IMG/VR virus record: IMGVR_UViG_3300046462_000479
Length of the DNA: 64,000 bases
Reading direction: 5' to 3' (one strand)
DNA from: a virus
Taxonomy: Duplodnaviria; Heunggongvirae; Uroviricota; Caudoviricetes
Shown: positions 32,827 to 51,916 of the stretch, one piece after another
How the letters are laid out: each line of letters opens with the position of its first letter
How positions within the stretch are numbered: the stretch's first letter is position 1
Translations under genes and position numbers: made by a program
The notes under the pieces: generated by a model
Database searches by the model: none
Seen by the model: the letters and a program-made list of their open reading frames with translations, nothing else
Told to the model about the DNA's origin: nothing

Positions 32827-35800
32827 TAGTTCAGCCCGACACTACGTCCGGCGTTAGGGCCGCGTGTTTGTGTCGCGTTTCGGCGAGAGTTACGGATCAG
32901 TTTCGCGCGCAGCTCTCGGGCCAGCTGGTCGGCGTTCACGCTGCTGCTGTTGATCACGATGTCGCCGTGAACGTGGATGCCGCCGCTGTCATACGACTGA
33001 GGATGACGAACGTTCGGATGCTTGTGTGTCGGCACCGGGTGCGGCAAACCCGTGATCGCCCCGATGTTCGAGTGCGGACCCACCCCGGACGGCAGCGCGA
33101 TCCCGGCAGCAGCACCGCCAGTCGGAACCCGGAAATGGTGGGCCTGCGCCTGAGACAGGTTCGCTTCCAACAGCTTCTTCTGCGCATACGACAGACCAGG
33201 AATACGGTTGACCAGGCTCTCGATCGACACCGGCCGGTAGTTCGTCCCCATCCCCGACTGGCCCTTCAGGGTGTTGTTGATGTTCTGCAGCCACGACGTA
33301 ATCTTGTCCTTCTGCGCCGTCGACAACGTGATGTTTTCCTTGCGGGCGAGCGCCAGCACCTCGTGGATCTTCCGCAGCTCCTTCAACGTCGTCGAGTCGA
33401 ACCGGAACCCGGTACCGGTGATCTGCTTCATCAGCTTCGCCAGCGACTCGTTCGCCAGCTGGGACCTGGTGATGCCGAGCGCGGCAGCGGTCACACCAAT
33501 GTCGTGCTTGCGGCCGCCAAGGAGATGCTCCAAGAAGTCGAGCATGATCTTCCGCTCGCGGCCTGCGATCGTCAGCTGCGCGGCCACCGACTTCCCGCTG
33601 CCGATGCCGAGGATCTTGTCGATCGCCAACGAACCAGGAGACCCGGCGCCACCGTGGATCCGTTTCTGTGTCGCCTCGATCTGCTTCGCCAACGCCAGCT
33701 CTTCCCGCTTCTGCGCGAGCAGCTGCTTCCCGGTATACGTCTGCGCCTTCAGCCAATTAAGCGCCTTCTCCTGCTGCGCCAGCAGCGCCTTGTTCGCAGC
33801 CAGCTGCTGTGCCGCAGTACCCGACCCGCCCGCCAACGCGGCCCGCTGACCGGCATTCGACAACGCCGCCTGCATACCAGCAGGAAGCAGACCCAGCCCG
33901 CCACCGCCGCCGGTCGTGGGGACACTGCCAGCCTTAGGAATGTTCCCGGCACCAGCGTTGTTGTTGAGCGTTTTGTACGTGTTTATCTGATCAATGATCG
34001 ACGCCTTCTGCGACGACGTCAGGCCAGGCATTCTGAGCAGGTTGTTGTAGTAGGCGATCGCTCGTTTGTTGGCCCGCACATCGTCAGCCGTGTTTGGGCT
34101 TCCTTGCGCTCGCGAGACAGCCAACTGAATGCTCCCTGGCAGAGTGAGCATCCCCATCGTGAACCGGTCCACAGCGGGCTGGTCCCCTGTTCCGCGTCCC
34201 GGTCCGCCGGGAGCGCCTCCTCCACCACGCGTCGGATGCGTTGCCGCCCCTGAAAGGGTGGTCGGCGTAACGGCTCCGCTCTGACTGACTGTCACATACC
34301 CGGTGTTCTTGCTCCAGTAGACGCCGTTCCCGACAGACTTAAGACCAAGATCTTTGATCGACTGCTTCGCTGATGCCGACGGTTCCGTGAACGCCATCGC
34401 CGCACCCAAGGCACCGGCACCAATAAGTCCAAGCATCGGACCAAACCTTGTCGCTAGAGCCGTAAGAGCCGGGAACAACGTCCCGGTGATCGTTGCCGCC
34501 AGCCCGGTAGTGGCACCAGCGGCAGTCGTTTCCGCGCCCGCCATCCCGTAGAACAGTCCGGTCGTTGCTGTCGTGGCTCGGCCGACCCCGAGGATGCTTC
34601 CGAGCAGCCCAGCACCAGAGTTGAGGCCCATCATTACCGTCACAGACCGGAGCGCGCTCCGCATCAGGTAGAGCGCAAACACCCAGCCCAACAGCGTCTT
34701 CGCCAACGGAATCCGCAGGATCTGATTGATCATCCACACGAACACTCTCAGGGCGCCAGCAACAACCTGGGAGACGGCCGCCTCGACCTTAATGAACGCC
34801 AGCGCAGTCTGTTCCAGTACAGGCAGCAGGACATTGAGGAGACCGAAAAGCGCCTTGATTTGCGCAAGATGCGCCTCGAACAGGCTGTGGAGTGCGGCCT
34901 GGGTTGTGGTCAGGTTAAGCCATGTTCTGATTTTCCCGATGATGTCGGCCAACATGCCGATGAACTGTGTCCCGAAGCCGACGGCAGGCTTAAACACCGC
35001 GAAGAGGGCGCCGCCGATCTGTTTGAACAGGTTCAGCCACACGTCGAACATGTGGATCAGCGACTCGACGACATGGTGGACCTGCCCCCAGTTCTGTGGA
35101 GAGTTCCACTTCGTGAAGAAATGGTCGAGGCCCTTGATCAGGCCGCCGGTGTGCTGGGCTGCAGCGTCGAGCACTTTCATGAACAACTCGAACGCCTGCG
35201 TCAGCATGTGGATCGACTGCGGCAGCCGCTTCTGGAAGATCTTCTCCAAGTCCGTGAAGATGCCCAGACCACCCTGCGGACCCGCTTGCTGCAGCCAAGA
35301 GAACAACGGCTGCAGGCCCTTCTGGATGATCTTCGTGTTCTCGGCGGCGAACTTCCCGATCGTCGGCAAGAACTTCTCGCCGACCAACATGATCTGCCGG
35401 ATAATGTCCGCACCCGTTTTCGCGGCCGGGGCCGTCAGCTTGTGGAACATGTCTCCGAACGCGACCGACGTCTGCGCCGCAGCCATATACGCTTTCCGTA
35501 CCCGCGGATCGAACTCGGCCATCGCCGCGTTAAGCTGCTTCTGCGCAGTAACAGCCTGCCTGCTGTTCTTCCCGTAGGTCGCGATCGCAACGTCAAGCTT
35601 GTCCATCGCCTGCGCGGTCGTCGTAATGCCATGCAACGCCTGGCCCGTACCAGCAAGATCGGTACCCATCCCCACCGCCGTGGTAGCCAAAGCGCCACCA
35701 GCAAGAAGTCCGCCGCCGAGCAGAGCACCGACACCCGACCCAGCAATGCCGAGCGTGCTAGTCAGCGCCCGCTCCGCACCGAACCCGGCCAGGCCTCCCA

Positions 35801-36740
35801 GCGACCCGAACCGTGCCATGCCAGGGAACAGCCGTCGGCCTCTGCCACCGAAGCCACCGCGTCCGAATCCGAACATCCACGGGACAGGGATACCGCCGCC
35901 GCCACCCCAGCCCATGGCCTGCAAGAAGCCGGGCTGGTTATCTCCGCCGCGGCCGCCGATCAACCCGAGAAGGCCGCCCATGAAGTTGTGCGAAGGATCG
36001 TTCGGGTCGATGCCGCGCGACCTGAGATACCGCACTGCGCCAGCAACATCACCGCCGCCCACCTGGCTCATACGCAGGATCGGGTTCGGAGGCAAAGGAC
36101 CTTTGCCGAACGAGCCTACGTCCCGACGGATCCGTTCCGCATACTGCGCGTCCTGCGCGAAGATCCTGTTCTGTAGCAGCAGGTTGGCCGGGTTATAAGG
36201 AACCATCTCCCGACCGGGAGGCACTCCGCCACCGGCAGGCGCTCCGCCTGCCGTGAAGATCCTGTTCGGACGTGTCACCTGCTGCCATGCCGACCCGTTC
36301 CAGATCAGGTCCTGTGACGTGGGGGGCAGGAACGTGCCCAGCGACGACCGGGCACGCCCGACACCCATCGGCATCCCCGAACCACCGTATTCTCCTCTGG
36401 CCCGCCCAACGAGATCGAGCGCTACTTTCGCCTCGACGGCTGCGTTGCGGATGTCATTGATTTGGTCGACTTCCTGCCTGGACGCAAGCGCGTTCTGCGC
36501 GACAGCCGATTGAGGAACGTACAAGTCGGACATCTTGGAACGGACATCGCTGACCGTGTCCATGGTGGACACGAGGGCGCTGTCGATGATCTTCAGGTTG
36601 CCTTTGACCTGAGCGACAGCCCGCTCGGGAAGCTCCATATCTCTCAGGTCGGTATTCAGCCCAGCCATGGCTCGCCGGGCGTCGTCGATTGCCTTCTCGG
36701 TTGCGGCAAGCTGCGTGTCGGCAGCCTTCATCCCTGCCAT
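32826..36740 (-). CDS. tape measure protein (1304 aa)
   Basis: Size; coiled-coil N-terminus; Gly-rich segments; follows G/GT. Confidence 0.85.
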   Translation of the reverse strand: MAGMKAADTQLAATEKAIDDARRAMAGLNTDLRDMELPERAVAQVKGNLKIIDSALVSTMDTVSDVRSKMSDLYVPQSAVAQNALASRQEVDQINDIRNAAVEAKVALDLVGRARGEYGGSGMPMGVGRARSSLGTFLPPTSQDLIWNGSAWQQVTRPNRIFTAGGAPAGGGVPPGREMVPYNPANLLLQNRIFAQDAQYAERIRRDVGSFGKGPLPPNPILRMSQVGGGDVAGAVRYLRSRGIDPNDPSHNFMGGLLGLIGGRGGDNQPGFLQAMGWGGGGGIPVPWMFGFGRGGFGGRGRRLFPGMARFGSLGGLAGFGAERALTSTLGIAGSGVGALLGGGLLAGGALATTAVGMGTDLAGTGQALHGITTTAQAMDKLDVAIATYGKNSRQAVTAQKQLNAAMAEFDPRVRKAYMAAAQTSVAFGDMFHKLTAPAAKTGADIIRQIMLVGEKFLPTIGKFAAENTKIIQKGLQPLFSWLQQAGPQGGLGIFTDLEKIFQKRLPQSIHMLTQAFELFMKVLDAAAQHTGGLIKGLDHFFTKWNSPQNWGQVHHVVESLIHMFDVWLNLFKQIGGALFAVFKPAVGFGTQFIGMLADIIGKIRTWLNLTTTQAALHSLFEAHLAQIKALFGLLNVLLPVLEQTALAFIKVEAAVSQVVAGALRVFVWMINQILRIPLAKTLLGWVFALYLMRSALRSVTVMMGLNSGAGLLGSILGVGRATTATTGLFYGMAGAETTAAGATTGLAATITGTLFPALTALATRFGPMLGLIGAGALGAAMAFTEPSASAKQSIKDLGLKSVGNGVYWSKNTGYVTVSQSGAVTPTTLSGAATHPTRGGGGAPGGPGRGTGDQPAVDRFTMGMLTLPGSIQLAVSRAQGSPNTADDVRANKRAIAYYNNLLRMPGLTSSQKASIIDQINTYKTLNNNAGAGNIPKAGSVPTTGGGGGLGLLPAGMQAALSNAGQRAALAGGSGTAAQQLAANKALLAQQEKALNWLKAQTYTGKQLLAQKREELALAKQIEATQKRIHGGAGSPGSLAIDKILGIGSGKSVAAQLTIAGRERKIMLDFLEHLLGGRKHDIGVTAAALGITRSQLANESLAKLMKQITGTGFRFDSTTLKELRKIHEVLALARKENITLSTAQKDKITSWLQNINNTLKGQSGMGTNYRPVSIESLVNRIPGLSYAQKKLLEANLSQAQAHHFRVPTGGAAAGIALPSGVGPHSNIGAITGLPHPVPTHKHPNVRHPQSYDSGGIHVHGDIVINSSSVNADQLARELRAKLIRNSRRNATQTRGPNAGRSVGLN

Positions 36741-36781: not shown

Positions 36782-37401
36782 CTACCTCGATTTGAGCTTC
36801 GCCTCCCGTTCAGCCTGTTCGTACGCCCATTTCTCGTCGGCGGGACGCAACTCGTTCAGCTCGACCATCCACTCGGCCAGCTCCGACGATCCGATCCGTT
36901 GCAGCATCTCGGCCACTGTGCACCCAATCTTTTCCGCGATCAGGAAGTAGAGGCGCCGTTCTGGGTGCTGTCGAAGTTTCCCTCGGCCGCTCCGGCGTAG
37001 GCTCCGAGGGCGGACAGCTTCTCGATCTCATCGACGACGTCGGCGATCTTCGAGCCGCCGATCTTCATGACGCGGTCCATGTCGCCGGGCCGGAACATCG
37101 GCTTCCGGTCACCAGGAGGAGTGGAAGGGTCGACGACACCGGCCTGGATCAGCTGCCGCTGATACATCTTCGCGTCGATCTTCTTCTGGTCTGCGAGCAG
37201 GCCGACCGACTGCCAGCCGACGATCTCGGCTCGCGCTTCGCCGGTGATCTCGGACAGGACGAGCAGGCCGAGGCCGTCGATCTCGACCTCTTTCTCTTTG
37301 AGGACGCCGACGTTGTTCAGCCAGTCTTCGCGGGACGCGAACTTCTTCGTGGCCGGGGCCGTAACCTCGATCGTCGTCTCAGTTGGATTAGCGGGGCTCA
37401 T
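36782..37401 (-). CDS. tail assembly chaperone GT (-1 programmed frameshift product; slippery GGGAAAC at ~36976-36982)
   Basis: The -1 frame after G encodes ...HPERRLYFLIAEKIGCTVAEMLQRIGSSELAEWMVEL. Confidence 0.6.
36940..37401 (-). CDS. tail assembly chaperone G
   Basis: 153 aa, directly upstream of the tape measure gene. Confidence 0.7.
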   Translation of the reverse strand: MSPANPTETTIEVTAPATKKFASREDWLNNVGVLKEKEVEIDGLGLLVLSEITGEARAEIVGWQSVGLLADQKKIDAKMYQRQLIQAGVVDPSTPPGDRKPMFRPGDMDRVMKIGGSKIADVVDEIEKLSALGAYAGAAEGNFDSTQNGASTS

Positions 37402-37914: not shown

Positions 37915-38325
37915 TTACGGCTGGTGCTGCAGAGATCCCGTCCCGACGAAGGTGAAGTCGATCGTGATCAGACCGTCGACCGGGTCGCTGATCGCGAACT
38001 GGGTGATGTTCGCGGTGCCTTCGTAGAAGCCGCCCAGCTGCGCTGACACCTGCAGCTGCAACACAACCGAGCTGGACGTGAGCAGGGCGGTGGAGAGCAG
38101 GAACTGGCCTGTGGTGTCGTTGATCAGGTTCCAGTATCCGTTGATGGCGCCGTTCCAGCCGCGCAGGCCAGGAACGAAGTGGCGCCACGAGTCGCCGAGC
38201 ACGGAGGCGTCGTAGTTGCCTGCGTCCACGGTCAGCGTCCACTGGTGGACGTCGGTGATCGGGGTCAGCGGCGTGCCTGGAATGTAGACGGTGCCGCCTT
38301 TACCCGCGAGAGCAGTCTCAGCCAT
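37915..38325 (-). CDS. major tail protein (136 aa)
   Basis: MAETALAGKGGTVYIPGTP; position upstream of G. Confidence 0.6.
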   Translation of the reverse strand: MAETALAGKGGTVYIPGTPLTPITDVHQWTLTVDAGNYDASVLGDSWRHFVPGLRGWNGAINGYWNLINDTTGQFLLSTALLTSSSVVLQLQVSAQLGGFYEGTANITQFAISDPVDGLITIDFTFVGTGSLQHQP

Positions 38326-39804: not shown

Positions 39805-40163
39805 GGGTTGGCGTTATCGAACGGCGGTCCGATCAGCGTGTTGATGCTGGTCGGTTGTTCCGAGAACCCTTCGTCGCCGACGGCGTTGATCATCGTCAGC
39901 CGGTCCCACAAAGTGAACTGTTCGGCTTTGCAGTCGTCGCCGGAGAAGAACAGGTCGAAGTCAGGGTCGCCGGTTGTTTCGTCGGCCTTACGGATCGCCT
40001 CGACGCCGCCCTGCATCATGCCGTGCGCTTCCCGGTAGCAGCGGAGTATCTGGGCGGGAGCGTAGATCGGTTCGCCGTGGCCGTCGAACCCCTGCCATGA
40101 CTCCCACTTGACGCGGGCGGTCATCATCGCGGAAATCTCAGGAGGGCAGGAAGGGATCGGCAT
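39780..40163 (-). CDS. head closure-like protein (127 aa)
   Basis: Position and size. Confidence 0.45.
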   Translation of the reverse strand: MPIPSCPPEISAMMTARVKWESWQGFDGHGEPIYAPAQILRCYREAHGMMQGGVEAIRKADETTGDPDFDLFFSGDDCKAEQFTLWDRLTMINAVGDEGFSEQPTSINTLIGPPFDNANPWLIVVAT

Positions 40164-40648
40164 CAGAACACCTCTTCGTCAAGGACGAGGCTTTCCCCCT
40201 CGACGGTGTCGGGAAGCGTGTCGGTGGTGTAGCCGCCCACCCACGGGTTCTCCATCATGTTCTTCGTGAACATCGGCGCGATCAGGCCGGAGTCCTGGCC
40301 GATCGTCATCTTGTCGGCCGCGGTCATGCCGCCGATGTAGGGGACGACAGTGCCCATCGCCTTGCTGCGCAGCATCCTGGCCATGGTGAACCAGCCTTGC
40401 GCCATCTTGGTGTACTGCACCTGCATCGACCTGCCCAGCCGGACGTCGGCTTTGCGCAGGACGCGGCGGCCGATCATTTCGGCGCAGCGGGCGCATCCAG
40501 CCCAGAAGTTCCGTTCCTGGGTGAGCGCGTAGGCGATCTCTTCGTCTTGGAGCTGCTGGTCTCTAGGGTCGGTGTCTTGCAGTTCGGCCCGGACCTGGTA
40601 GACCTCGTTGGTGGCCAGCTCGCTGGGGTTGTAGCTCCACGGCATCAT
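40163..40648 (-). CDS. head-tail connector (gp6-like) protein
   Basis: N-terminal SELATNEVYQVRAELQDTDPRDQQLQDEEIAYALTQ. Confidence 0.5.
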   Translation of the reverse strand: MMPWSYNPSELATNEVYQVRAELQDTDPRDQQLQDEEIAYALTQERNFWAGCARCAEMIGRRVLRKADVRLGRSMQVQYTKMAQGWFTMARMLRSKAMGTVVPYIGGMTAADKMTIGQDSGLIAPMFTKNMMENPWVGGYTTDTLPDTVEGESLVLDEEVF

Positions 40649-40956
40649 GTCACCTCTAGGACACCGGATAGCAGCACCGGGATTTCCGGGCTGTCTGTGA
40701 CTTTCACGTACACATCATAGAATCCGGCTGGGAGGACGACGGCTCCGCCGGGGCCGACCAGGCAGCGGGCGTAGTAGATGCCGTTCAGGGTGCTCCACGA
40801 TCCCGCGTAGAACGCGGTCGGTTCGGCTGCGGGGTCGGGGAACGCGAACGTGACTGTGTCTCCGGTCGGGTCGCCTCCGGTTGCTTCCGAGATGGGAACC
40901 CTCACGTATTGCAGCGAGGCGCTGTTGATCTGTAGGTCGGCGAGGCTGGCTGTCAT
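40645..40956 (-). CDS. hypothetical Ig-like protein (103 aa)
   Basis: Internal ATG; 4-nt overlap with the upstream gene. Confidence 0.5.
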   Translation of the reverse strand: MTASLADLQINSASLQYVRVPISEATGGDPTGDTVTFAFPDPAAEPTAFYAGSWSTLNGIYYARCLVGPGGAVVLPAGFYDVYVKVTDSPEIPVLLSGVLEVT

Positions 40957-43900
40957 AGCGGCTTTCCTGCGCTCCAATCTTGGTCTGTGTCGTCTGTCTG
41001 AATATCGACGCTCATTCTTCCGGTAGCCCATCCTGATTCTGGCGGGCAGACGGTGTAGTCGGCACCGACGCAGGTCAGTCTTCCGGTCGCCCAGCCGGAC
41101 TCCGGCAGGCCCGCCTTGAAGTACAGGTTCTGGGCTCTGACCGCGGTCGGCGGAACGATCCGGTACTTGGGCTGGCGTCGGTTGCGTCTGAGCGCGTCCT
41201 TGACCGCGACCAGCACGACGGTGAGGACAAGGATCGCGATCCTGCGTGCCGCCAACGTGGTCGGCGGGAAGATGCGGGTGTGCGGCCCGCGCCGTACCGC
41301 TTCCCGTTGGATGCGGCCGTTAAGGACAACCCTGATCGTCGACTGGCTGCGGTCGGGAAGTCGGTATGCGCCCTGGACGATCTTGCGGACGACAGTCGGC
41401 CGCGGCCTGATGCGGACCAGCCTGACCAGCGGACCGAAGAACACCTGCAGGACGGTCGGCTCTCCGAGAACCTTACTGGTCGGCCTAGGCCGTATACGGG
41501 CCAGCGTGACCCGGATCGTCTGCTCGGCCTGCTCGACGGACGGCACCCTGACCTTGGTCGGAATCCGGAGGAATCGGCTGGTCGGACGCGGCCTGGTGGC
41601 GACGGTATGGACGGACGGTCCAGCGAAGACCCGCAATGTCTGCGGCTCGCCGAGCGTCTTGCTGGTCGGCTTGGGCCTGGCGTGGGTGAGCGTGACCGCG
41701 ACAACGGTCTCGACCGGAGGAGTGGAGACGACGGTCGGCTCTCCGAGAACGTGGATGGTGGGTCTCGGCCTGGTGCGGACGAGACTGATGGCAAGCGTGC
41801 GCAGCTTCTGTTCGACCGACGGGACACGAACAACCTGCGGCTCTCCGAGTGTCTTGACGGTCGGACGCGGCCGAGTGTGGGTGAGCCACACAAACGGCCC
41901 GTAGAACGCCGCCTTAGCGACAACAGCCGGTTCAGCCAGGAACGAGCGCGGAGCCCGTCTCTGAGCTTCCAGGCGCGTCCTGAACGCCCTGGTGACGCTG
42001 ATGCTGCTCGTCTGCGGGTAGAAGATGAGCGGACCGAGCGTGCGCCTCGTCGGCCTCGGCCTGATCCTGGCCAGAGCGACCTGGATCGTCTGCATCCGCT
42101 GGGTCGGCAGCGGGATGACAACCGTCGGCGGCCGCAGGACAGAATGGGCTGGCCTGGTGACCCGCCTGACGGTGGCAACCTTGACCGGCGCCTGTGGCGG
42201 TGCGGCAACAATCGTGGGCGGCTGCAGCCTGCGGACGGTCGGCCTGGGCCTAGTCCGAACCAGGTCGACTCTGATCGTCTGTTCCTGCTGCTCGACAGAC
42301 GGAACACGGACAACCTGTGGCGGGCGCAGGAATGAATGGGCGGGCCGCCGCTTGTCTTCCAGCGGTATCCGTACCGCGACCTCGGTTTCTACCGGGCCGA
42401 AGAACTCCTGCAGTGTCGTCGGAGGCGGCAGGAACGCACGAGTCTTGCGTGGCCTTGTGTGAACGAGCGTGACAACGATCTCGCTGGTCTGCGAGTAGAA
42501 GACGGCAGCGAGACGGCGAACAGTCGGCCGCGGCCGGATCCGTGTCAGCGCGACAAGGATCCTGCTCGTCTGCGAGTAGACGGTGTAGCCGAGCTTGGTC
42601 CCGACTGTCGGCCTCGGCCTGATACGGGCCAGGTGGACGGCAGGGCCGTAGTAGATTTGGCCGACGGGGATGACGACTGCCGGTGGCGACAGTTTGGAAT
42701 GCGGCAGGCGACGGCGGTCCTCGACCGGGATACGTACAGCAACCTCTGCTTCGACCGGACCAGCAAAAACCTGTAGGGCCTGTGGCTGCCCGAGCGTTTT
42801 CGTGGTAGGCCGCGGCCGAGCCCGGACCAGATCGACCCTGATCGTCTGCTCCGCCTGCTCAACCGACGGGACACGAACAACCTGCGGCGGAGCGAGGAAG
42901 TAGCGGGTCTCACGCGGCCTGGTACGGACAGCCGCGACCACGACCTCGCTGGTTTGCGGGTAGACGGTGTAGCCGAGCCGGGTGCCGAGCGTATGCCGTG
43001 GCCGCGTGTGGACAAGATCGACGCGGATGGTGTCTTCGGCCAGCTCGATCGAGTACGGGGTGAGCGTCGCCGGAGGAGCAAGCAGCCAGACGGTGTGGCG
43101 CGGCCGGATACGGGCCAGCTCGGAGACGATCTCCAGCCGCCGGTCGGGAGCCCGCAGGTACGGCTCGACAACGGTGGTCTGGAAGAAACGCCGGGTGGGC
43201 CTCGGCCTGGTATGGACGAGCGGTGCGAGCGGCCCGTTGTAGACAGCACGGTTAATGACCTGCGGCTGGCCGAGATCCTTTGTGGTCGGCCGTGGCCGCG
43301 TGCGGACGAGCGTGACGCTGATCGTCTGCTCTCGGTGCTCAACACTGGGGACACGAACGGCCTGTGGTTCACCGAGAACATGGACGGTTGGCCGCGGCCG
43401 CGTGTGGGCCAGCCATGTTCTCGGACCCTGGAAGATCTGAAGTACGGTCGGCGGGCTAAGGAACGTTCTGGTCTTGCGCGGCCTAGCATGGGCCAGCCCG
43501 ACCAAGATCTCGCTGGTCTGCGCGTAGAAGAACGGCGGCCCGAGGTTCGACATCGGCGGCCGACGGTGCCTCCGGTTGAACCGGTCGATGGAGAGCAGGT
43601 TGACGGACGGCCCTTGGAACGTCTGCAGGACGGTCGGAGGACTGAGGAGCGAAGATGGGAAGTGGCGTCGCCCGAATCCGCGGAGCCGGTTGTCCTGGAG
43701 GTTGACGCTGATCAGCGGAGCAACGAACCCGGTTGCGGCGGGAACAAACCCGAACAGCGTGGCCGTCGTCCGGCGCGGCCGGGTGCGCGTCAGCTTCGTC
43801 TTGACGACGAGCTGGCCGGGCGTCGTGACGACCGCGAGCGGCCGGAGGTACAGGGCCGTCGTGAACGTCTTGGTGGTCGGCCTCGGCCGCGTCTTTACAA

Positions 43901-45494
43901 GGTCGACGCGAATCGGTGACGCGACGAACACGGCCGTCGTGATGACGGCGGGCGGAGCGAGCCGAGAGAACGTCCGGCGCGGCCGCGTCCTGGCGACGGC
44001 GACGGCGACATTCTCGGCGATCGGCGACGAGACGACCGTCGGCCCGTATAGGACGCTCATCGCGAGCCGCGCCGACGTGTTCCGGGACGCGCCGACAGCC
44101 CCCGTCGTCAGCCACGTCTGGACGGTTTCGATCCGCTGCGACGGCGGCGCGTTGAATACCTGCGGTGGCGCGATGCCCGCTACGGTGCGGCGACGGACCC
44201 GCGTGACACGCGACGAGGAGACGGCGACGGTAGTGACACTGACCGGCTCGGGGAGCGGCGGCGGCTGCGCGAGCGTCCCAACGGGGAACAGGAGCGACTT
44301 CGGGGCGCGCCGCTGCGCCTGCGCCCGGAGCATCACTGCGACGTCGAACGCGACCCCTTGGTTGATGGTCTGCTGTTGCTGCGAGATGGGAGCTGCCAGG
44401 ATCAGAGGTGGCTTCGGCCCGAGGAACGGCGACCGGTAAACAACCGATGTCTGCGGGATGGATCCTCCGCTGAAGTTGTCGAGGTTTGCGCCAGTCGCGA
44501 AAACGCTCGTCCGGATGTACGGGTAGTAGACGTCGGGCAGGAACGTGGAGTCACTGACTGAGATAGCGAGGAGCCAGTCGGTCGGGGTGGCGCCGTTCTT
44601 CTTCACCCAGACGGTGAGGCGTGTCCCTTCGCGCCTGAGACGGTACGAGTTACCCGCTGCGACCCCGGCGGCAGTAGACCCGGTACCTAGAGTGCTCCCG
44701 GATCCTTTGACGACCTTTATGAGCGTGATGGCTCCTCCGGACTGGGCGAATTGAACGTCGTAGCCGTTCTGGTCGCTGGCGTTCGGTCCAGCCGGTTGCG
44801 CGTTGAGTCCGAGGTTGAAAAAAGAGGCGACGGGCGCCGTGACGGAGTCGACGGCGACCTCGCAATACGGGCCGAATGGTTCTGCCCGGACAGCGATGGT
44901 CGAGCCAGATGTCGAACAGGCCACGTTCGACGTGATCGTGATAGAGCCAGCGAATCCGAATACCGGAGTCACCCAGTCCGGCCCGAGCGCCGCCCTGTTG
45001 AAGTCGTCGATCAGCCCGGATATCGCCGTCGGGACGTCCGTGTACGCCTGAACGTCGACCCATCCCGGGAGCGGGAACCGGCGCTTCTCCGAGATACGCC
45101 GCGACTGACTAGCGAGCGCGACCGTGATCGTCTGCTGCCGTTGGGTCGGAAGCGGCGTTACGAGTTGCGGAGGCTTCGGACCGAGGAGCGGACTGCGAAG
45201 CTGAACGATCTGCGTTCCGCCATCCGACAGCGACGTAGCTCTAGTGAGGCCGCCGTCCCAGCCCTGTAACGGGAACCGGCGTGTCCGGCCGTGGCCACGG
45301 TCGAGACGGTCGACGGCGAGGTTGACGTCTAGCGTCGTAACGACCGGCGGATTCGACGCGTTGGTGACCTCGGCGGGAGTGTGCGGGCCGATGTTGCTGC
45401 CGGAACCGGCGCCGTAGGAAGTGCCGTCTCCCTGGTCGGCGAGTGCAGGTGTTACGAACGCCTGCTGCTGTATGCCGCGGCCTATGCGCGGCAT
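40953..45494 (-). CDS. giant repeat protein (1513 aa): ~330-aa lectin-like N-terminal domain plus ~22 tandem 30-45-aa repeats ending in (T/I)RPR(P/K)T
   Basis: Uninterrupted 4.5-kb ORF; repeated VRVPSVEQxEQTIRVxLVRTRPRPT units. Confidence 0.7.
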   Translation of the reverse strand: MPRIGRGIQQQAFVTPALADQGDGTSYGAGSGSNIGPHTPAEVTNASNPPVVTTLDVNLAVDRLDRGHGRTRRFPLQGWDGGLTRATSLSDGGTQIVQLRSPLLGPKPPQLVTPLPTQRQQTITVALASQSRRISEKRRFPLPGWVDVQAYTDVPTAISGLIDDFNRAALGPDWVTPVFGFAGSITITSNVACSTSGSTIAVRAEPFGPYCEVAVDSVTAPVASFFNLGLNAQPAGPNASDQNGYDVQFAQSGGAITLIKVVKGSGSTLGTGSTAAGVAAGNSYRLRREGTRLTVWVKKNGATPTDWLLAISVSDSTFLPDVYYPYIRTSVFATGANLDNFSGGSIPQTSVVYRSPFLGPKPPLILAAPISQQQQTINQGVAFDVAVMLRAQAQRRAPKSLLFPVGTLAQPPPLPEPVSVTTVAVSSSRVTRVRRRTVAGIAPPQVFNAPPSQRIETVQTWLTTGAVGASRNTSARLAMSVLYGPTVVSSPIAENVAVAVARTRPRRTFSRLAPPAVITTAVFVASPIRVDLVKTRPRPTTKTFTTALYLRPLAVVTTPGQLVVKTKLTRTRPRRTTATLFGFVPAATGFVAPLISVNLQDNRLRGFGRRHFPSSLLSPPTVLQTFQGPSVNLLSIDRFNRRHRRPPMSNLGPPFFYAQTSEILVGLAHARPRKTRTFLSPPTVLQIFQGPRTWLAHTRPRPTVHVLGEPQAVRVPSVEHREQTISVTLVRTRPRPTTKDLGQPQVINRAVYNGPLAPLVHTRPRPTRRFFQTTVVEPYLRAPDRRLEIVSELARIRPRHTVWLLAPPATLTPYSIELAEDTIRVDLVHTRPRHTLGTRLGYTVYPQTSEVVVAAVRTRPRETRYFLAPPQVVRVPSVEQAEQTIRVDLVRARPRPTTKTLGQPQALQVFAGPVEAEVAVRIPVEDRRRLPHSKLSPPAVVIPVGQIYYGPAVHLARIRPRPTVGTKLGYTVYSQTSRILVALTRIRPRPTVRRLAAVFYSQTSEIVVTLVHTRPRKTRAFLPPPTTLQEFFGPVETEVAVRIPLEDKRRPAHSFLRPPQVVRVPSVEQQEQTIRVDLVRTRPRPTVRRLQPPTIVAAPPQAPVKVATVRRVTRPAHSVLRPPTVVIPLPTQRMQTIQVALARIRPRPTRRTLGPLIFYPQTSSISVTRAFRTRLEAQRRAPRSFLAEPAVVAKAAFYGPFVWLTHTRPRPTVKTLGEPQVVRVPSVEQKLRTLAISLVRTRPRPTIHVLGEPTVVSTPPVETVVAVTLTHARPKPTSKTLGEPQTLRVFAGPSVHTVATRPRPTSRFLRIPTKVRVPSVEQAEQTIRVTLARIRPRPTSKVLGEPTVLQVFFGPLVRLVRIRPRPTVVRKIVQGAYRLPDRSQSTIRVVLNGRIQREAVRRGPHTRIFPPTTLAARRIAILVLTVVLVAVKDALRRNRRQPKYRIVPPTAVRAQNLYFKAGLPESGWATGRLTCVGADYTVCPPESGWATGRMSVDIQTDDTDQDWSAGKPL
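41290..44060 (-). repeat. in-frame tandem DNA repeats (~100-130-bp units) inside the giant gene
   Basis: Recurrent GGCCTCGGCCTG...GATCGTCTGC nucleotide blocks. Confidence 0.6.
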
Positions 45495-45796
45495 CGCGAC
45501 CTACCTAGAGGCGGTTCCCCTGGTCGAGCGGGTCCGGCGCGGACAGCGCGACGGACGCGGCGGACGGTGACGCGGCGGCGGACGCGGGGCCTCCGCGCGA
45601 GCCGTCCAGCGATCAGGCGAACGGTCGTGAGGATCGGCCGGAACCACCTGACCGTGATTCGTTGGAGCGTCCGCGGCTGCCGGACGAGTGCGACTCTGAG
45701 CGTCCGCATTTCTATCGGTGGGAGTGCCATCGGCGCGATGACGGCGGGTGGGGGAAGGGCGCAGTTGGCTCGCACGGCTAGAGGATACTCCGCGGC

Positions 45797-46366
45797 CTAA
45801 AGCATTCCGTAGAGGGTGGCGACGCTTCCAGCAACGAAGTTCGCTCCGCCCGCGGCGACGAGTTGGAGGTCGTTGATGGCGGCGGTGTTCCGCCAGAGGC
45901 CGGTGAGGAGGCCGATGAAGCAGTCGGCCAGCGTCGATGAGAGGTAGCAGGTGTTCCCGAACACGTTCTTGAAGTTGCCGACGGTCGCGTAGCCGGGGAC
46001 GACAAGCTCGCCTGTCCCGAACCGGTTCGCGGGGGACGCGCCACCGCCTTCGAGGACAGCCCACGCGGCCGTCTGCGCTACGCCGCCCGCACCGGACACC
46101 GCGCTCGTCCCTCCGGCGATCATCTCTTCGCGGTCGTAGTTCGCGCCCGAGTCGCCGTTGAAACGGATCAGCGTCTCGGACGCATTCGTGCTACCCCCGT
46201 CGTCGCGGAGGTAGGTGACGCAGCGGAGCGCCCGGAACGTCTGCGGGATGTTCGCGAACTCGATAGTCGGGGTGGCGACACTGATGACGCGCGAGTCGAT
46301 CTCGGTGAGCCCGGACAGGACAGTTGCGCCTGCCGCCGACCCAGGAGTGATGAACACGCTTGACAT
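45797..46366 (-). CDS. hypothetical structural protein (189 aa)
   Basis: ORF track. Confidence 0.5.
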   Translation of the reverse strand: MSSVFITPGSAAGATVLSGLTEIDSRVISVATPTIEFANIPQTFRALRCVTYLRDDGGSTNASETLIRFNGDSGANYDREEMIAGGTSAVSGAGGVAQTAAWAVLEGGGASPANRFGTGELVVPGYATVGNFKNVFGNTCYLSSTLADCFIGLLTGLWRNTAAINDLQLVAAGGANFVAGSVATLYGML

Positions 46367-46391
46367 GCGGGGAGAGTATCGCTGCTTACGG

Positions 46392-47273
46392 CTAGTGGCC
46401 GGGAGGGAGTAGGACCTGCATCGAACTCCACGGCATGTTGTTCGACAAGACCAGGCCGTTCGCGTTGCCGGGGTCGAGGGTGATGCCGAGCGACGACCAG
46501 TCGGCGTCGTTGACGGCTCCGCCAGCCCGGTCTGACCCGTGGATGGTCATGTTGCTGCCGCCGTCGCGGCAGAGCATCCCGTAGTTCTGGAGGGCACGGC
46601 AGACCATCTTCTCAAACAAGTTCAGGGTGAGCGTGTCAGGGTTGACGTTCGGGTTGAGGCGCATCCATGCGCCGAACGTGAGGCCGGTCCCTGCTCCTCC
46701 GAATGATGTGTTGGCCGGGTACGGGCATGGGGCCGGGCCGACGTTCGCCATGTTGAATACGAGGGCGTGGTTGATCTGGCCGGAGGCGACGTCGACGGCG
46801 CTGATGATGGCGCGGCCGAGCGGGAACCGGGCGGCGTTCGCGTTCCCGGGTTGCGGCTCCTGGTCGGCTCCGAGCGGGAACGAGACGCCGAACGCGCAGC
46901 CGGTGATCCGTTGCGTCCCGGAATCGTAGGTGACGCCGCTCATGTCGTGTTCGCGGCTGTGGATCGGGTCCTTGACGGTGAGGTGATGGTCGGTGGAGAC
47001 GCCGGGCTGGGTGCCGAGCGGGATGTAGAGGGTCGCGTCGAGGAACGCGCTTCCGGGGACGGCGTAGCCGGGCGAGTCGGATTGGGTGACGGCGGTCGCG
47101 ACGTCGGCCGCGAACGTAGCCTGGTTAGCGCCGACGCCTGCGGTGGCGACCCACGTGGAGACGAGCGACACGGTGTTGGGGTCGAGGGTGGCTCCTCGGG
47201 CGGACCAGGCCCATGGTCCGAACTGCGGCCCGGGCTGGAGCGCTGGCGGCGTGGGGAAGTGCGGTTGCCGCAT
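46392..47273 (-). CDS. structural-module protein, paralog of 48990..50024 (293 aa)
   Basis: Shared GPWAW...YIPLGTQPG..DHHLTV.DP.HSR...NANAARFPL blocks. Confidence 0.55.
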   Translation of the reverse strand: MRQPHFPTPPALQPGPQFGPWAWSARGATLDPNTVSLVSTWVATAGVGANQATFAADVATAVTQSDSPGYAVPGSAFLDATLYIPLGTQPGVSTDHHLTVKDPIHSREHDMSGVTYDSGTQRITGCAFGVSFPLGADQEPQPGNANAARFPLGRAIISAVDVASGQINHALVFNMANVGPAPCPYPANTSFGGAGTGLTFGAWMRLNPNVNPDTLTLNLFEKMVCRALQNYGMLCRDGGSNMTIHGSDRAGGAVNDADWSSLGITLDPGNANGLVLSNNMPWSSMQVLLPPGH

Positions 47274-48631
47274 CAGGTGAACGTCGGGACGAGGATGTCG
47301 TGGCGGGGAACCCAGAGCCGCCCCTTGCGCGCCCACTTGTCGCCCAGACAGTAGACGGAGGCCCGGTTCACGGCCTGGCCGATCACCTGGAGCGAGAACG
47401 GATCACTCCGATCTTGCGCCTCTTGCCCTTGGAACACGCCGGGGGCGTAGTCGACGTAGATCCCGATCGCGCAGCACATCGCGATACGCGTCGACGAAGT
47501 GACTTGGGTGATCCGGCAGACGGGCGCAGTCCCCTTCACCACTGATGGGAACTGCTGCCTCGCGCCGAACGAACACTTCCAGCCTGCGCCGTAGGTGCCT
47601 GCCGTGAAACCACTCCAAAATGCTCCCGACGTTCCGGTCGCGTTCAATGAAACGTTGGCGACGGTCGGGTTAGACACGATCCCGAACGTGCCCGCCTTCG
47701 CGCTCGTTGTGACGGGGGCTCCAGTGATAACGAACTCCCAGAGCGCCACGATGCCGTCCAGTGCTGCAATACCCGCGGCAGCGTAGGTAGTCATTGTTGC
47801 GTTGTAGTTGACGTTCGCGTTCGAGGTCGCATTACGGATCTGATGGAGACCGTTGCCGCCGGTCGTGTCCGCGATACCAGCAGGCGGCGCGTTATCGACC
47901 GCGTTGAACAATCCGGTCGCTCCTGCGTTGTCGCGCGTCCAGCCTGTCCCGACCGCACTGTCCGCGGTCGGGACGAGCAGCACAACTTTTCCTGGACCAC
48001 ACCAGCCTGTGTTAGCTGTCCCGGTCGAGTCGTTCAGGGCGATGTCGTCGATGTTGATGGTTTTGCTCGCGCCCGGGGCCTCCCACCAGCCCCACTGAAT
48101 GTTCGACGTTCTGGCTACGCTTCCGCTCCAGGTCGCCACGGTGATGCCGTCCAGGAGAAGCGTGGCGGACGTCCAGTTGCTGGTTGCCGTTGCTACGGCT
48201 TGTATCTCGACGCGGTGCCAGGTGCCGTCGTTCATAACTGCCGACGGTGAACCTTGCGCTGCCCCGCTGACGACCAGTTCTAAAGCGCCGTCGGTGCGGA
48301 GACGGGCTGCCGGATTGTTTCCCGCATTCGTCCCGAATCCGAACACCCTGGCCGCAGAGGACGGGGTCGCCGAGGTGAGCAGGTAGGCGCGGATAGAGTA
48401 GGTGACCCCATCGACGCCGAGGGTGTAGCCAGCCTGGCTGGGAAGGTTGTACCCGGTAGGGTTGTTGCCGACACCCGAGTCGGATTTGTATGAGGCGGCA
48501 CCGCTGCGGAACACCACAGTGTCTCGCGTCGCGCCGATTCCACTGTTTCCGTCAGGGCTGGCGTCGGCGAGTGGGCCTCCAGCGGGTACCGCGCCGTCAA
48601 CTTCGGCTCCTGCGTGCCAGAGTCGCGCCAA
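47273..48631 (-). CDS. lectin/ConA-like structural protein (452 aa)
   Basis: ORF track; beta-rich composition. Confidence 0.55.
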   Translation of the reverse strand: MARLWHAGAEVDGAVPAGGPLADASPDGNSGIGATRDTVVFRSGAASYKSDSGVGNNPTGYNLPSQAGYTLGVDGVTYSIRAYLLTSATPSSAARVFGFGTNAGNNPAARLRTDGALELVVSGAAQGSPSAVMNDGTWHRVEIQAVATATSNWTSATLLLDGITVATWSGSVARTSNIQWGWWEAPGASKTINIDDIALNDSTGTANTGWCGPGKVVLLVPTADSAVGTGWTRDNAGATGLFNAVDNAPPAGIADTTGGNGLHQIRNATSNANVNYNATMTTYAAAGIAALDGIVALWEFVITGAPVTTSAKAGTFGIVSNPTVANVSLNATGTSGAFWSGFTAGTYGAGWKCSFGARQQFPSVVKGTAPVCRITQVTSSTRIAMCCAIGIYVDYAPGVFQGQEAQDRSDPFSLQVIGQAVNRASVYCLGDKWARKGRLWVPRHDILVPTFT

Positions 48632-48635
48632 GGGT

Positions 48636-48980
48636 CTAGGTCGCCTGTTCTGTGGTTTCGATGATCAGTGGACCTTCGTAGCCTTGCGCCTGGTAGTCGT
48701 ACTTGTAGACCTCGACCGTGTAGGTGCCCGCTACGGGCGCGGACGCGGTGATCGTCCCGCACGTGTGAACACCCGCAACTGTCCATCTCTGCTCGGTCAG
48801 GTCGGGCGCAACAACGACAACGTCAAGGTAACGGCCTCCAAAGTTGCAGAGGGTGATGTCGAACGTTCCCCCGGCCACGGTCGGGTTGGGGCTAGTGGTG
48901 ACGGTCGCGTTCGTCGCGTCCGCGGACGCGACGACCACCGCGGCAACTAAAGCCGCGCAGATGAGCAGAAGCTTCTTCAC
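48636..48980 (-). CDS. small secreted Ig-like protein (signal peptide; 114 aa)
   Basis: MKKLLLICAALVAAVVVASA signal peptide. Confidence 0.55.
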   Translation of the reverse strand: MKKLLLICAALVAAVVVASADATNATVTTSPNPTVAGGTFDITLCNFGGRYLDVVVVAPDLTEQRWTVAGVHTCGTITASAPVAGTYTVEVYKYDYQAQGYEGPLIIETTEQAT

Positions 48981-48989
48981 GGTTCCTCC

Positions 48990-50024
48990 TTACGGGGACG
49001 GTGGCGTGAGGACCTGCATCCTCGACCAGGGGATCGGCCCGAGCTGACGCGCGTACGGGTAGGCGGGACTGTAGGCCGGGTTTGTGATCGGCAGCGTGAC
49101 GCCGACCGCTCCCCAGGAGGTCGCCTGGCCGCCCTGGTTGACGGCGTCGAGCGCGTAGATGGCGACGTTTGAGCCGAGGTCGCGGAGGAACATTCCGTAC
49201 TGCTGGAGCGCGTAACACATCAGCTTCTCGAGGGTCGGCAGGATGAGCGCGTCGACGTTGACGGTCGGGTCGAGGCGGAGCCAGGTTCCGAGGCCGAGGC
49301 CGGTGCCGCCGGGCGCCTGCCCGTTTGCTGGATACCGGGTCGGGCTTCCGACGTTCGCCATCGAGAACACGAGCGGATGCAGGATCGCGCCGCCCGCGAT
49401 GTCGGCGGGCGTGATCAGCCCCTCGATGAGCGGGAACCGGGCCGCGTTCGAGTTGCCGGGCGCGGGCTCCTGTACGGCTCCGGGAGCGAACGACGTGCCG
49501 CCCTGGCACGACCAGACCGATCCGTTGAAGCTGGCCTCCCAGAGGTCGGACTGGCGGCTGTGGACAGGGTCCTGGACGGTGAGGTGGTGGTCGCTGTTGT
49601 GGCCCGGCTGGGTGCCGACGGGGATGTAGACGGACGCGTCGAACGGGCCGCCGCCCGAGATGGCGTAGGCGGGCGAGCCGCCATCGGTGTCGGCGCGGGC
49701 GACGGACGCCTCGAAGTAGTAGCCGCCGCCGTTGGTGGCGAGCCATGTTGAGATCATCGCCGCCGAGTTCGGGTCTATGGCTGCCTGGGTCGCGTCCCAC
49801 GCCCACGGGCCGCTAGACGGCGGGGGCGGGACAGGCGCAGGTGCTGTCGGTGCAACCAGTTGACCGGCTTCGGCGCGTGCGGCGGCGATCAGCGTGAGCG
49901 CGTTCGCCCAATTCGTTCCCGGAGGAGGCGTCGTCCATTTCCGGTTGATGTAGCCGACCGTCGTCTGCTTCAAGGCTGCAACAGCCTGGTCGAGTTTTGC
50001 TTGAACGTCCTGCGGGGATGCCAT
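48990..50024 (-). CDS. structural-module protein, paralog of 46392..47273 (344 aa)
   Basis: See the paralog. Confidence 0.55.
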   Translation of the reverse strand: MASPQDVQAKLDQAVAALKQTTVGYINRKWTTPPPGTNWANALTLIAAARAEAGQLVAPTAPAPVPPPPSSGPWAWDATQAAIDPNSAAMISTWLATNGGGYYFEASVARADTDGGSPAYAISGGGPFDASVYIPVGTQPGHNSDHHLTVQDPVHSRQSDLWEASFNGSVWSCQGGTSFAPGAVQEPAPGNSNAARFPLIEGLITPADIAGGAILHPLVFSMANVGSPTRYPANGQAPGGTGLGLGTWLRLDPTVNVDALILPTLEKLMCYALQQYGMFLRDLGSNVAIYALDAVNQGGQATSWGAVGVTLPITNPAYSPAYPYARQLGPIPWSRMQVLTPPSP

Positions 50025-50767
50025 TACTCCTCATCTTCAGGTATCTCTGCTGTTTCTATCGCCACCTGGAAGCCGTCGGCGATCGTGAGCCCAGTCATCC
50101 ACCGGTCCTCCTTCTCCGACCAGGACGGCCACACTGTCGTGCCGACAAGATGGCCTAGCCGTGCTGCCGTGTCGACATGGATCTTGAAGCCAGCTTCGGT
50201 GGCGCGGATGCAGAAGTTGACGTCCTCGCTGATTCTTCGTCCTTGGCTGTCGCGTCCGAGTTCGAACCAGGGAGGGTCGATGGTCTCGATTACTGATCTG
50301 CGGATCAGCATCCCGGACGAGCCCGAGAACTGGACCTCGACCAGCTCGTCGGGACCGTACAGGCTGAGGTCCATGAAGTTGTCGTCGACGGTCGGGACGG
50401 GAAGGAACGGCTGCTGGCGGCGGAGGCAGAGCGGGGCAGCAATGTCGACATTGCGGGTGAGGAGCTGCACGAGTATGTCGGGCCGGAACGAGTGGTCATC
50501 GTCGATGAACCAGATCCATTCGCCGTGGATCTCCGCACATGCCTGATTGCGCAGCTCGGAGATGTCGGAACCGATCTTCGGCTTGACAACCGACCCGGCG
50601 GGGATCTGGAGTCCCATCAGGTTTAGCCAGAAGAGGGTGTAGCGGGCCGCCTCGTTGGCGAGCATGACGACGGTTCCAGGCTGGTTCTCCGGCTGGTTCA
50701 TCAGCACAGCCATCTCTTCCAATTGGTCGATCCTCATCAGCGTCCTTTCATGCGTGCATGTCGGCAA
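50024..50767 (-). CDS. putative GT-A-fold glycosyltransferase (DxD: WIWFIDDDH)
   Basis: DxD motif and EDVNFCI; paralogous to 50748..51440. Confidence 0.55.
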   Translation of the reverse strand: MPTCTHERTLMRIDQLEEMAVLMNQPENQPGTVVMLANEAARYTLFWLNLMGLQIPAGSVVKPKIGSDISELRNQACAEIHGEWIWFIDDDHSFRPDILVQLLTRNVDIAAPLCLRRQQPFLPVPTVDDNFMDLSLYGPDELVEVQFSGSSGMLIRRSVIETIDPPWFELGRDSQGRRISEDVNFCIRATEAGFKIHVDTAARLGHLVGTTVWPSWSEKEDRWMTGLTIADGFQVAIETAEIPEDEE

Positions 50768-51440: not shown

Positions 51441-51916
51441 GTCAGCCCCCCTTCGCTCAGGTCTCCGTGGACTCGTTCCATCCGCTCGGGGATATCGCTG
51501 TCAAAGAACTCGTAGCCGTAGTCGTGGATGACGGCGAGGCTGCCAACGTCGAGATACGGAGCAAACGTCGCAATCTCCCTAGGCTTATCGGGACCGTCGC
51601 AATGAAGAATTACGGGCGACAGATCAAAATCTCTAACGACATAGGGGATATTCTTCCAAATATCCATCTGGTTAAAGTATCCAGCAAGCCAATCTATCTC
51701 CGGGTCGGCAATGTCGTAGGTCTGAAAGATCATGTTTCTATGCCACGCCTGATCGGAAAGATAGAGAGCGAAGCCGCCGATTCCAGTCCCGAGTTCGATG
51801 ATCTGTTCGACCTCGGGGTGGAGGTTGAGGAGTTTCTCCCAGACGAGGTAGTCGTGCCACCACTGGTGCGCCTCAACGCCGCAGTAGCTGGTGGTCATCT
51901 CCTGGACGGAGATCAC
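51419..51916 (-). CDS. class I SAM-dependent methyltransferase-like (TylF/CmcI-like) protein
   Basis: IIELGTGIGGFALYL motif I; VILHCDG. Confidence 0.5.
   Translation of the reverse strand: MISVQEMTTSYCGVEAHQWWHDYLVWEKLLNLHPEVEQIIELGTGIGGFALYLSDQAWHRNMIFQTYDIADPEIDWLAGYFNQMDIWKNIPYVVRDFDLSPVILHCDGPDKPREIATFAPYLDVGSLAVIHDYGYEFFDSDIPERMERVHGDLSEGGLTCILQAA

Follow-up and report, generated by a model that had tools for sequence, protein, structure and literature searches.

A repeat protein with sockets for lectin-type domains, encoded between the head and connector genes of a siphophage: a candidate accessory adhesin

The window analysed here is a stretch of 64,000 nucleotides from a virus of the class Caudoviricetes (IMG/VR record IMGVR_UViG_3300046462_000479), and carries the structural genes of an uncultured siphophage, which are all encoded by the minus strand. 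An open reading frame (ORF) of 4.5 kb, termed here the repeat gene, lies between the gene for the major capsid protein and the connector and tail genes; its product consists of a long basic array of short units interrupted by a lectin-type domain. The product (the repeat protein) is tentatively interpreted as a virion-exposed, head- or neck-attached accessory adhesin that would display lectin modules on a polycationic scaffold, a reading to which a probability of about 0.4 was assigned. The coordinates of all features are collected in Table 1; related proteins and loci are designated by P and L numbers, respectively.

The repeat gene is uninterrupted, as a preliminary description made from the sequence had stated in reporting a single ORF. 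The protein is rich in Arg (11.5%), Pro (11.1%), Val (11.6%) and Thr (10.6%). A JGI contig of 77.6 kb and a Logan contig of 73.4 kb encode an identical product of 1513 residues, and since the two were assembled independently an assembly artefact or frameshift, which that description had named among the outcomes that would overturn it, is excluded. The ATG start codon is supported by the N-terminal motif MPRIGR, which recurs among relatives (MPRIGRS in P0008, P0009 and P0015). A spurious ORF in high-GC DNA was considered and rejected: intact ORFs with the same motif are found in dozens of contigs, the spacing of the repeats is in frame, and the G+C content at third codon positions (0.79) is similar to that of the adjacent genes.

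The motif RP(R/K)xT was matched 22 times between residues 504 and 1363, in the context L(V/A)(R/H)(T/I)RPRPT and at spacings of 27-36 residues or multiples thereof; composition-preserving shuffles (2000) contained it 0.1 times on average and at most twice, so the earlier count of about 22 repeats ending in (T/I)RPR(P/K)T was accurate. A unit hidden Markov model (HMM) of about 30 match positions, seeded from motif-anchored segments and iterated on the repeat protein and its first four relatives, detected 25-26 clear units, and the consensus of the protein's own 25 units (alignment A1) is LxxPxVxxxxxxxxVxLVRTRPRPTxxxLxxPx. The array also includes degenerate units, which end in RRAPxS or RRFPLQGW; the scaffold has about 40 short units in all. 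By inspection, a unit seems to consist of a pair of amphipathic beta-type segments and, after them, a basic, Pro-rich RPRPT turn. Five unit types were distinguished: A (VVRVPSVEQxEQTIRVxLVRTRPRPT), B (PTVLQVFxGPxVxLxRxRPRPT), C (YxQTSEIVVxLVxTRPRKT), D (LxPYSIELAEDTIRV) and E, a unit with an acidic patch that is present in two copies (LQEFFGPVExEVAVRIPLEDKRRPxHS). Thr accounts for 11% of the array and Pro for 12%, the position that follows RPRP being a fixed Thr, and over residues ~358-1470 its net charge is +123. With the degenerate units included it runs longer than the roughly 920 residues first attributed to it, although its existence was correctly seen. The last 43 residues of the protein are acidic, and the motif PESGWATGR, described before as duplicated, was found there at residues 1464-1472 and 1485-1493.

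The periodicity is maintained at the protein level. Tandem Repeats Finder, run on 40-46.5 kb, reported no array in the repeat region. A DNA repeat search returned families merely 60-80% identical, with spacings that are all multiples of 3; unit-to-unit nucleotide identity averages 46% and the longest exact repeat is 27 nt. A tandem repeat of the variable-number type, with copies at least ~70% identical, was rejected on these grounds, and of the DNA-level repeat reported earlier there remain weak families but no clear array. Fifteen of the 22 motif-anchored units are closer to a unit of another family member than to any other unit of their own protein, which indicates that the unit types are older than the proteins carrying them and argues against recent expansion by slippage or homogenisation. 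The suggestion that the array is a hotspot for length variation through slippage was therefore not upheld, the units being diverged and the two assemblies in agreement; nonetheless, length varies widely among relatives (689-2533 residues in complete-looking members).

Searches of Pfam, PHROGs and NCBIfam with the repeat protein gave sub-threshold matches alone, neither the protein nor two of its relatives matched any of 50,697 phage records by megablast or tblastn, and a literature search for the motif strings returned irrelevant matches only. The architecture, unrecognised in the preliminary description, thus corresponds to no library family, cultured-phage relative or motif-bearing paper in these searches. 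A word-index search found four relatives (33-35% identity, 1147-1873 residues); the same search with a six-unit alignment found none, probably because it was swamped by low-complexity words. A 25-unit profile, run against 1.84 billion representative proteins, matched 53 at E<=1e-3 and 23 at E<=1e-30, of 221-2533 residues and with up to 38 matched units; among the 53, P0026 is a false positive and P0012 a fragment of the repeat protein itself. The relatives in this protein set number about 50.

Nearly all complete-looking members share a common plan, with M-x-R-(I/L/F)-x-R as a motif at the N-terminus, a basic array that may or may not hold inserts, and an acidic tail. In every relative examined that has an intact C-terminus the tail carries a mini-repeat of about 9 residues, of the W-x-T-G, A-C-L-x-D or S-G-S-D type. 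A second subfamily has units of the form LAYSLRGKPKS / RIRPxxT. The tails of P0013, P0015, P0016, P0019 and P0020-P0053 bear subfamily-specific mini-repeats with conserved Cys (ACLxD four to five times, or CYGDVVGFDF..EVCG...GGDEKREGC), a pattern that hints at disulfide or metal chemistry at the end of the chain. Eleven members were looked up, and none bears a name other than 'hypothetical protein' in any source. The pattern VRVPSVEQ found no relative in 185,579 GTDB species genomes and consequently gave neither a prophage nor a host assignment; peptide-pattern scans found one contig in IMG/VR and two truncated loci in JGI metagenomes. The family is rare, metagenome-only and undescribed in the libraries and papers searched.

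A special unit, termed a socket, is formed by RRFPLQGW, a loop and LGP(K/R)PP. Among 35 sockets of 18 family members the content is bimodal, of either 20-25 or 162-414 residues (two longer regular-expression artefacts in P0009 span several sockets). The repeat protein has one empty and one filled socket, so that its globular part is confined to residues 146-357; repeat-type sequence flanks it on both sides. The inserts of relatives were grouped by BLASTP clustering into four types: type I, with the motif DxFNR...DNF, which includes that of the repeat protein; type II, all-beta and unclassified, with the motif PTDNLV..IQTD; type III, matching Pfam Laminin_G_3 (P0004, E 4e-9); and type IV, of about 400 residues, with a faint match to FG-GAP_2 (P0008). 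Three of the four types (ConA-like, Laminin_G_3 and the faint FG-GAP) are of an extracellular binding kind.

An alignment of nine type I domains (A4) was used as input for AlphaFold2, and the model of the insert has 14 strands, a mean predicted local distance difference test score (pLDDT) of 73.8 and a predicted template modelling score (pTM) of 0.77. The best Foldseek match in the PDB is the CBM66 module of B. subtilis levanase (E 8e-7; template modelling score, TM, of 0.67-0.71 on the target), and further matches are the L-type lectins ERGIC-53 and VIP36 and legume lectins (E 1e-6 to 1e-5 for these top matches, CBM66 included), the accessory sandwiches of GH43 enzymes, and gp20, which forms the central fibre of mycobacteriophage Douge (TM 0.60). 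In BFVD, minor tail or tail fibre proteins from phages of Mycobacterium, Gordonia, Arthrobacter and Rhodococcus make up most of the named top matches, with TM 0.6-0.7 and E values of 5e-9 and weaker. The predicted fold is a two-sheet jelly-roll superimposable on solved members of the ConA-like superfamily (TM 0.5-0.7). None of the nine aligned domains matched Pfam at E<=1; against the PDB there was no match by sequence and none significant by profile (best lectin-type chain, E 0.12), a word-index search with the insert alone found no homologue, and the match to phrog_2804 is weak (E 0.017). On this model the insert has a known fold and forms a sequence family that is new. The first ~330 residues had been described as ConA-like: the fold holds, but not the boundary, residues 1-145 comprising the N-terminal motif and repeat-type units. 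The structural matches of the insert suggest that the host is probably an actinobacterium; the closest capsid proteins from cultured phages, about 40% identical, are those of Roseobacter RDJL phages and Arthrobacter phages.

A small companion gene, which in the window overlaps the start of the repeat gene, was found by tblastn in 9 of the 10 independent related loci tested (E 1e-22 to 1e-4), with no significant match in L011. Its products have 85-98 residues and a net charge of +15 to +23; most copies start with GTG ('VRAN...'), and the gene was mostly missed by gene callers. The layout comprises some 35 repeat-like residues, a hydrophobic stretch and a poly-Arg tail. The gene either immediately precedes the repeat gene or is separated from it by one gene of ~165-226 codons, and at nearly every locus its stop codon lies at, or slightly within, the beginning of the gene that follows. 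The companion is not matched by the unit HMM, so that its likeness to the unit rests on inspection and on one tblastn match (60% over 35 residues, to a unit of P0008).

Table 1. Features of the repeat gene, its protein and the surrounding region, and equivalents in related loci (positions in the window unless a locus is named)
Feature	Position	Strand	Residues	Basis or remark
Repeat gene	40953..45494	-	1513 aa	ORF list; 166 kDa, isoelectric point (pI) 11.7, ATG start
N-terminal region	45060..45494	-	1-145	MPRIGR motif, repeat-type units, empty socket, opening half of socket 2
Empty socket	45258-45281 (RRFPLQGW), 45168-45185 (LGPKPP)		72-109	24-aa loop
Filled socket (socket 2)	45060-45083 (RRFPLPGW), 44406-44423 (LGPKPP)		138-363	
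Type I globular insert	44424..45059	-	146-357	Predicted ConA-like lectin-type beta-sandwich; alignment A4, AlphaFold2, Foldseek
Closing half of socket 2 and degenerate units	44052..44423	-	358-481	One unit ends in QRRAPKS
Core array	41370..44051	-	482-1375	25 clear units of ~30-34 aa; motif list, HMM, alignment A1, DNA repeat families
Type E units, two copies	42708-42734, 42345-42371			General form LQxFxGPVExEVAVRIP(L/V)EDxRR
Degenerate terminal units	41115..41369	-	1376-1460	Ending VRRGPHT, RRQPKY; hydrophobic stretch IAILVLTVVLVAV
Acidic C-terminal tail with mini-repeats	40956..41114	-	1461-1513	PESGWATGR 41079-41105 and 41016-41042; WSAGKP 40959-40976
Companion gene	45482..45775	-	97 aa	GTG start, pI 12, net charge +23; overlaps start of repeat gene by 13 nt
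103-aa acidic gene	40645..40956	-	103 aa	pI 4.05; its ATG overlaps the stop of the repeat gene (ATGA)
Connector genes		-		After the 103-aa gene, before the major tail protein
Major tail protein	37915-38325	-		
Tail chaperone	36940-37401	-		
Tape measure protein	32826-36740	-	1304 aa	phrog_6090
Accessory genes	~9 kb between capsid and repeat genes			Two GT2-like, a methyltransferase-like and a weakly lectin-like 452-aa protein
314-aa protein	46392-47336	-	314 aa	Weak match to phrog_17388 ('minor tail protein')
452-aa protein	47273-48631		452 aa	Weak match to the lectin insert
344-aa protein	48990-50024	-	344 aa	Weak match to the same part of phrog_17388
GT2-like glycosyltransferases	50024-50767, 50748-51440	-		Pfam
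Methyltransferase-like gene	51419-51916	-		Weak
Doubtful ORF	51956-52444	-	162 aa	pI 10.95, net charge +18; no family match
Major capsid protein	54372-55364	-		phrog_1005, E 3.5e-70
His-phosphatase/S78-protease fusion	57027-59231	-	734 aa	Peptidase_S78_2 (XkdF-like) and His_Phos_1
Portal	59255-60697	-		
SPFH/Band 7	15486-16412	+		E 3e-30
PD-(D/E)XK nuclease	18451-19290	+		E 2.5e-12
PLD-like	29153-29761	-		Weak match
Companion copies in related loci	L003 240-518, L009 5231-5500, L001 3058-3330, L006 9062-9319, L008 6730-6999, L004 ~1576-1872, L010 ~9729-10013, L007 ~9705-10001			
Adaptor-like protein in related loci	L003 6128-7294, L004 7055-8197, L007 15752-16930, L008 12942-14186, L010 15094-16125			

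The repeat gene was placed between head and neck genes from the outset, and it does lie between the capsid gene and the connector and tail genes, here and in relatives. All related contigs with sufficient flank share one gene order: downstream of the capsid gene a block of glycosyltransferase family 2 (GT2), methyltransferase and LamG genes, then the repeat gene, then a connector or adaptor. The association with glycosyltransferases, also reported earlier, is conserved in most relatives with such flank, the GT2 and methyltransferase families being found upstream of the repeat gene in L001, L007, L008, L010 and the contig of P0002. Downstream, relatives have either the 103-aa gene and a connector of 158-162 residues (58-75% identical to that of the window) or an adaptor-like protein of 343-414 residues. 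Orthologues of the 103-aa gene, 58-69% identical, occupy the same position in L001, L006 and L009, and it is called as a gene in L005. In half of the related loci the adaptor-like protein, single and rich in Cys and Trp, stands in place of both; the 103-aa protein resembles its first ~100 residues in length and in a DP..VTF motif, but an hhalign comparison of the two was not significant (E 0.13). Homing endonuclease genes (HNH; LAGLIDADG) were seen among the neck genes of L006 (13477-14148, minus strand) and L007 (17732-18346).

Several further observations were made in the window. The fusion of a prohead protease with His_Phos_1 is unusual for a head-assembly gene, and a relative in L006 (1-1993) adds a NUDIX domain. 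In the accessory block, the 452-aa protein has a C-terminal motif (DPFS.Q..GQAV.RA..YCLG..WARK) that recurs in a 251-aa protein of L001, and the 314-aa and 344-aa proteins flanking it may be paralogues; the basic 162-aa ORF, a doubtful gene, lies amid a mostly acidic block. The G+C content of positions 40000-50000, which hold the repeat gene and the LamG-like genes, is 0.65-0.67, against 0.56-0.64 in the rest of the window, and this accessory block may have originated separately as a module. Within 38-56 kb, promoter- or terminator-like sites were not detected above chance level, and neither the Rfam nor the tRNA scan of the window returned a match. Away from the structural genes discussed here, SPFH/Band 7, nuclease and PLD-like matches were recorded (Table 1).

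In the proposed adhesin, a long polycationic scaffold of ~40 beta-type units would carry the sockets, each of which could take one lectin-type domain; here the filled socket would hold the ConA-like module. Many weak contacts, of the lectin with glycan and of the basic repeats with anionic envelope polymers, would first bind the phage to the cell surface reversibly, ahead of engagement by the tail tip. The fibre option raised in the preliminary description accords with the lectin-type inserts. The repeat gene lies inside the late structural operon and is translationally coupled (ATGA) to the next gene, and the nearest viral structural matches of the modelled insert are minor tail and tail fibre proteins of actinophages. 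Family members have 10-38 matched units, and complete-looking ones 689-2533 residues, against similar capsid-gene lengths (~329-339 aa, few seen), so that avidity suits the data better than a fixed stoichiometry.

Several points weigh against an adhesin. We infer its presence in virions, and with it exposure, attachment site, ligand, scaffold fold and oligomeric state; genes for known neck fibres are usually located elsewhere in the genome. Sugar-binding residues were not identified in the insert, though no ligand-bound structure was compared residue by residue, and its identity to known lectins is only 12-20%. An AlphaFold2 monomer of six units (residues 1187-1375), run with a 16-row alignment of equivalent six-unit segments, has a pLDDT of 38.7, a pTM of 0.18 and almost no secondary structure, and leaves a rod or fibre shape unproven. 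Searches of Pfam, PHROGs and NCBIfam revealed no recognisable N-terminal anchor and no C-terminal trimerisation or chaperone domain. A net charge of +123 on each chain sets the protein apart from known phage fibres and would make packing as a homotrimer hard without a polyanion.

A trimeric fibre would be compatible with the unfolded six-unit model, as obligate trimers can give such monomers, but there was no family match to one, and neither a shaft nor an anchor of the fibre type could be demonstrated. On a charge-hydropathy plot the array is slightly on the foldable side (H 0.48, boundary 0.453). We read the scaffold as neither a self-folding beta-solenoid nor a typical disordered tail, and as a candidate obligate oligomer or partner-folded chain. 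A beta-solenoid was rejected, as AlphaFold2 recovered no regular coil. The Pfam and PHROG scans showed no Ig-like, FN3 or Big domain, and a unit of ~30 residues is too short for Ig, in line with the first impression that these are not typical Ig-like fibre repeats.

The Ig-like capsid decoration proteins T4 Hoc and T5 pb10 and the BACON-repeat protein of crAssphage (BACON repeats, PMC6949934) are non-essential surface proteins of the virion with tandem modules of binding type, thought to provide weak adhesion to glycans. Their modules are autonomous Ig-like or BACON domains of 80-100 residues, in contrast to the basic, Pro-rich units of ~30 residues found here, which match neither Ig, FN3 nor BACON. 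The neck passage structure (NPS) proteins of lactococcal siphophages (TP901-1) are elongated, anchored at the neck and end in carbohydrate-binding modules (PMC10747895). The repeat protein would resemble them as an elongated accessory protein near the head-tail junction with carbohydrate-binding modules, auxiliary to the tail-tip device. They differ in being trimers with an N-terminal ring-forming anchor and terminal modules, whereas the repeat protein has a lateral insert, a strongly basic scaffold and no recognisable anchor, and no sequence similarity between the two was found in the Pfam, PHROG and phage-record searches. The insert shares its beta-sandwich with ConA-like lectins such as CBM66, ERGIC-53/VIP36 and Douge gp20 (Foldseek TM 0.53-0.71; BFVD 0.6-0.7) but lies outside Pfam and loops out of the chain, rather than forming a terminal module. 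As a whole, the protein would function most like the known accessory adhesion fibres and decorations, and it fits no tape-measure, Ig-decoration or beta-solenoid class.

The role of a ruler, also suggested at first, was not supported. In seven phages the lengths of the repeat protein and the tape measure protein were 1513/1304, 1147/1170, 930/1095, 1915/2448, 1754/1045, 1153/1069 and 1643/1240 residues, and after subtraction of the inserts the two lengths showed only a weak relation without ruler-like proportionality (Spearman ~0.4 in a small sample, n=7, with P0006, 1754 against 1045, as an outlier). The repeat protein as the tape measure itself was rejected, because a separate tape measure gene follows the tail chaperone and the repeat gene lies upstream of the connectors.

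The alternative that survives best, although we regard it as doubtful, is a thread or cement that laces the lattice: the chain would lack a fold of its own, and each basic unit of ~30 residues would dock by strand addition and through RPRPT onto one subunit of the periodic, acidic capsid or tail-tube surface, with the lectins facing outward, as a new type of decoration or stabilising protein. Long extended chains over a periodic capsid lattice are known in PRD1 P30, PBCV-1 P2, ASFV M1249L and the adenovirus cement proteins, which serve as the model; those belong to double-jelly-roll viruses and set the size of the capsid, whereas here unit number varies freely, and we know of no such protein in a tailed phage. 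A chain that gives no confident monomer fold and yet falls to the foldable side of the charge-hydropathy line would be expected if folding took place on binding. The exposed basic motif is among the conserved positions in all unit types and all relatives, specialised units (type E and the sockets) recur in relatives, and capsid and tail tube are acidic (-7 per subunit for both the major capsid and the major tail protein, pI 4.3-5.2). Against docking on a lattice, unit number varies about threefold among phages with similar-sized known capsid genes, and repeat length shows no clear scaling with that of the tape measure protein. A more specific version, in which the poly-Arg companion of 97 residues nucleates or caps a docking thread that laces the virion and presents exchangeable lectins from its sockets, is rather doubtful.

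It is improbable, though compatible with either an adhesin or a lacing thread, that the array acts as a glycan carrier, the Thr of RPRPT(T/S) being acceptors for the nearby glycosyltransferases and methyltransferase in a mucin-like coat or shield. The repeat gene is accompanied by GT2-like and methyltransferase genes here and in relatives, and the array is rich in Thr and Pro and has its fixed Thr after RPRP. Che8 and other F1 mycobacteriophages, in which glycans are covalently attached to capsid proteins, provide a precedent for phage glycosyltransferases associated with virion proteins (PMC11256854). There, however, the target is the capsid protein itself and no dedicated repeat protein is known, so the enzymes may equally serve the capsid or tail tube; nor would a mere acceptor need the strict conservation of Arg and of the hydrophobic strands.

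Packaging inside the head is quite improbable. Together with the companion, the protein would serve to neutralise the DNA or to organise it, one RPRPT motif falling on each helical turn, or else would leave the head by ejection along with it; its place among head genes and the extreme basicity of the two proteins (pI 11.7 and +123; pI 12 and +23) would suit this, the other structural-operon proteins examined being far less basic, save the tape measure protein (pI 10.2) and the doubtful 162-aa ORF. The regular spacing of a Pro/Arg motif also recalls minor-groove binders. However, it is not obvious what inserts of the lectin, LamG and FG-GAP-like types would do within a capsid, the AT-hook core RGRP is absent, no DNA-binding Pfam match was found, and by arithmetic ~40 units would span no more than ~0.4 kb, whereas the genome measures 77 kb or more. 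An AT-hook or SPKK minor-groove binder was rejected, since the motif (T/I)RPR(P/K)T lacks Gly and neither RGRP nor S/TPKK is present.

Least probable of all is a non-virion protein, either an assembly factor or a released or host-directed product co-expressed with the late genes, for although the family is known solely from metagenomes, its fixed place between head and connector genes, its translational coupling to the next structural gene and a weak match to a 'virion structural protein' PHROG speak against it.

The basic unit of ~30 residues, the socket architecture and the conserved companion genes are new in the libraries and papers searched. As the family is rare and metagenome-only, its general importance may be limited; the scaffold, with ~1100 strongly conserved residues matching no known family or fold, nevertheless recommends itself for structure determination. 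Taken with the glycosyltransferases linked to the repeat gene, the companion genes suggest an entire undescribed module of the virion surface. If the protein were a lacing thread, it would represent a class of decoration or cement protein new to tailed phages of the HK97 fold, and would offer a natural scaffold for modular display. If it is on the virion, it would embody a new building principle for phage adhesion devices, in which standard sockets would let related phages swap whole binding domains (ConA-like, LamG, FG-GAP-like); such swapping would bear on the evolution of host range and could be copied for phage display and engineering.

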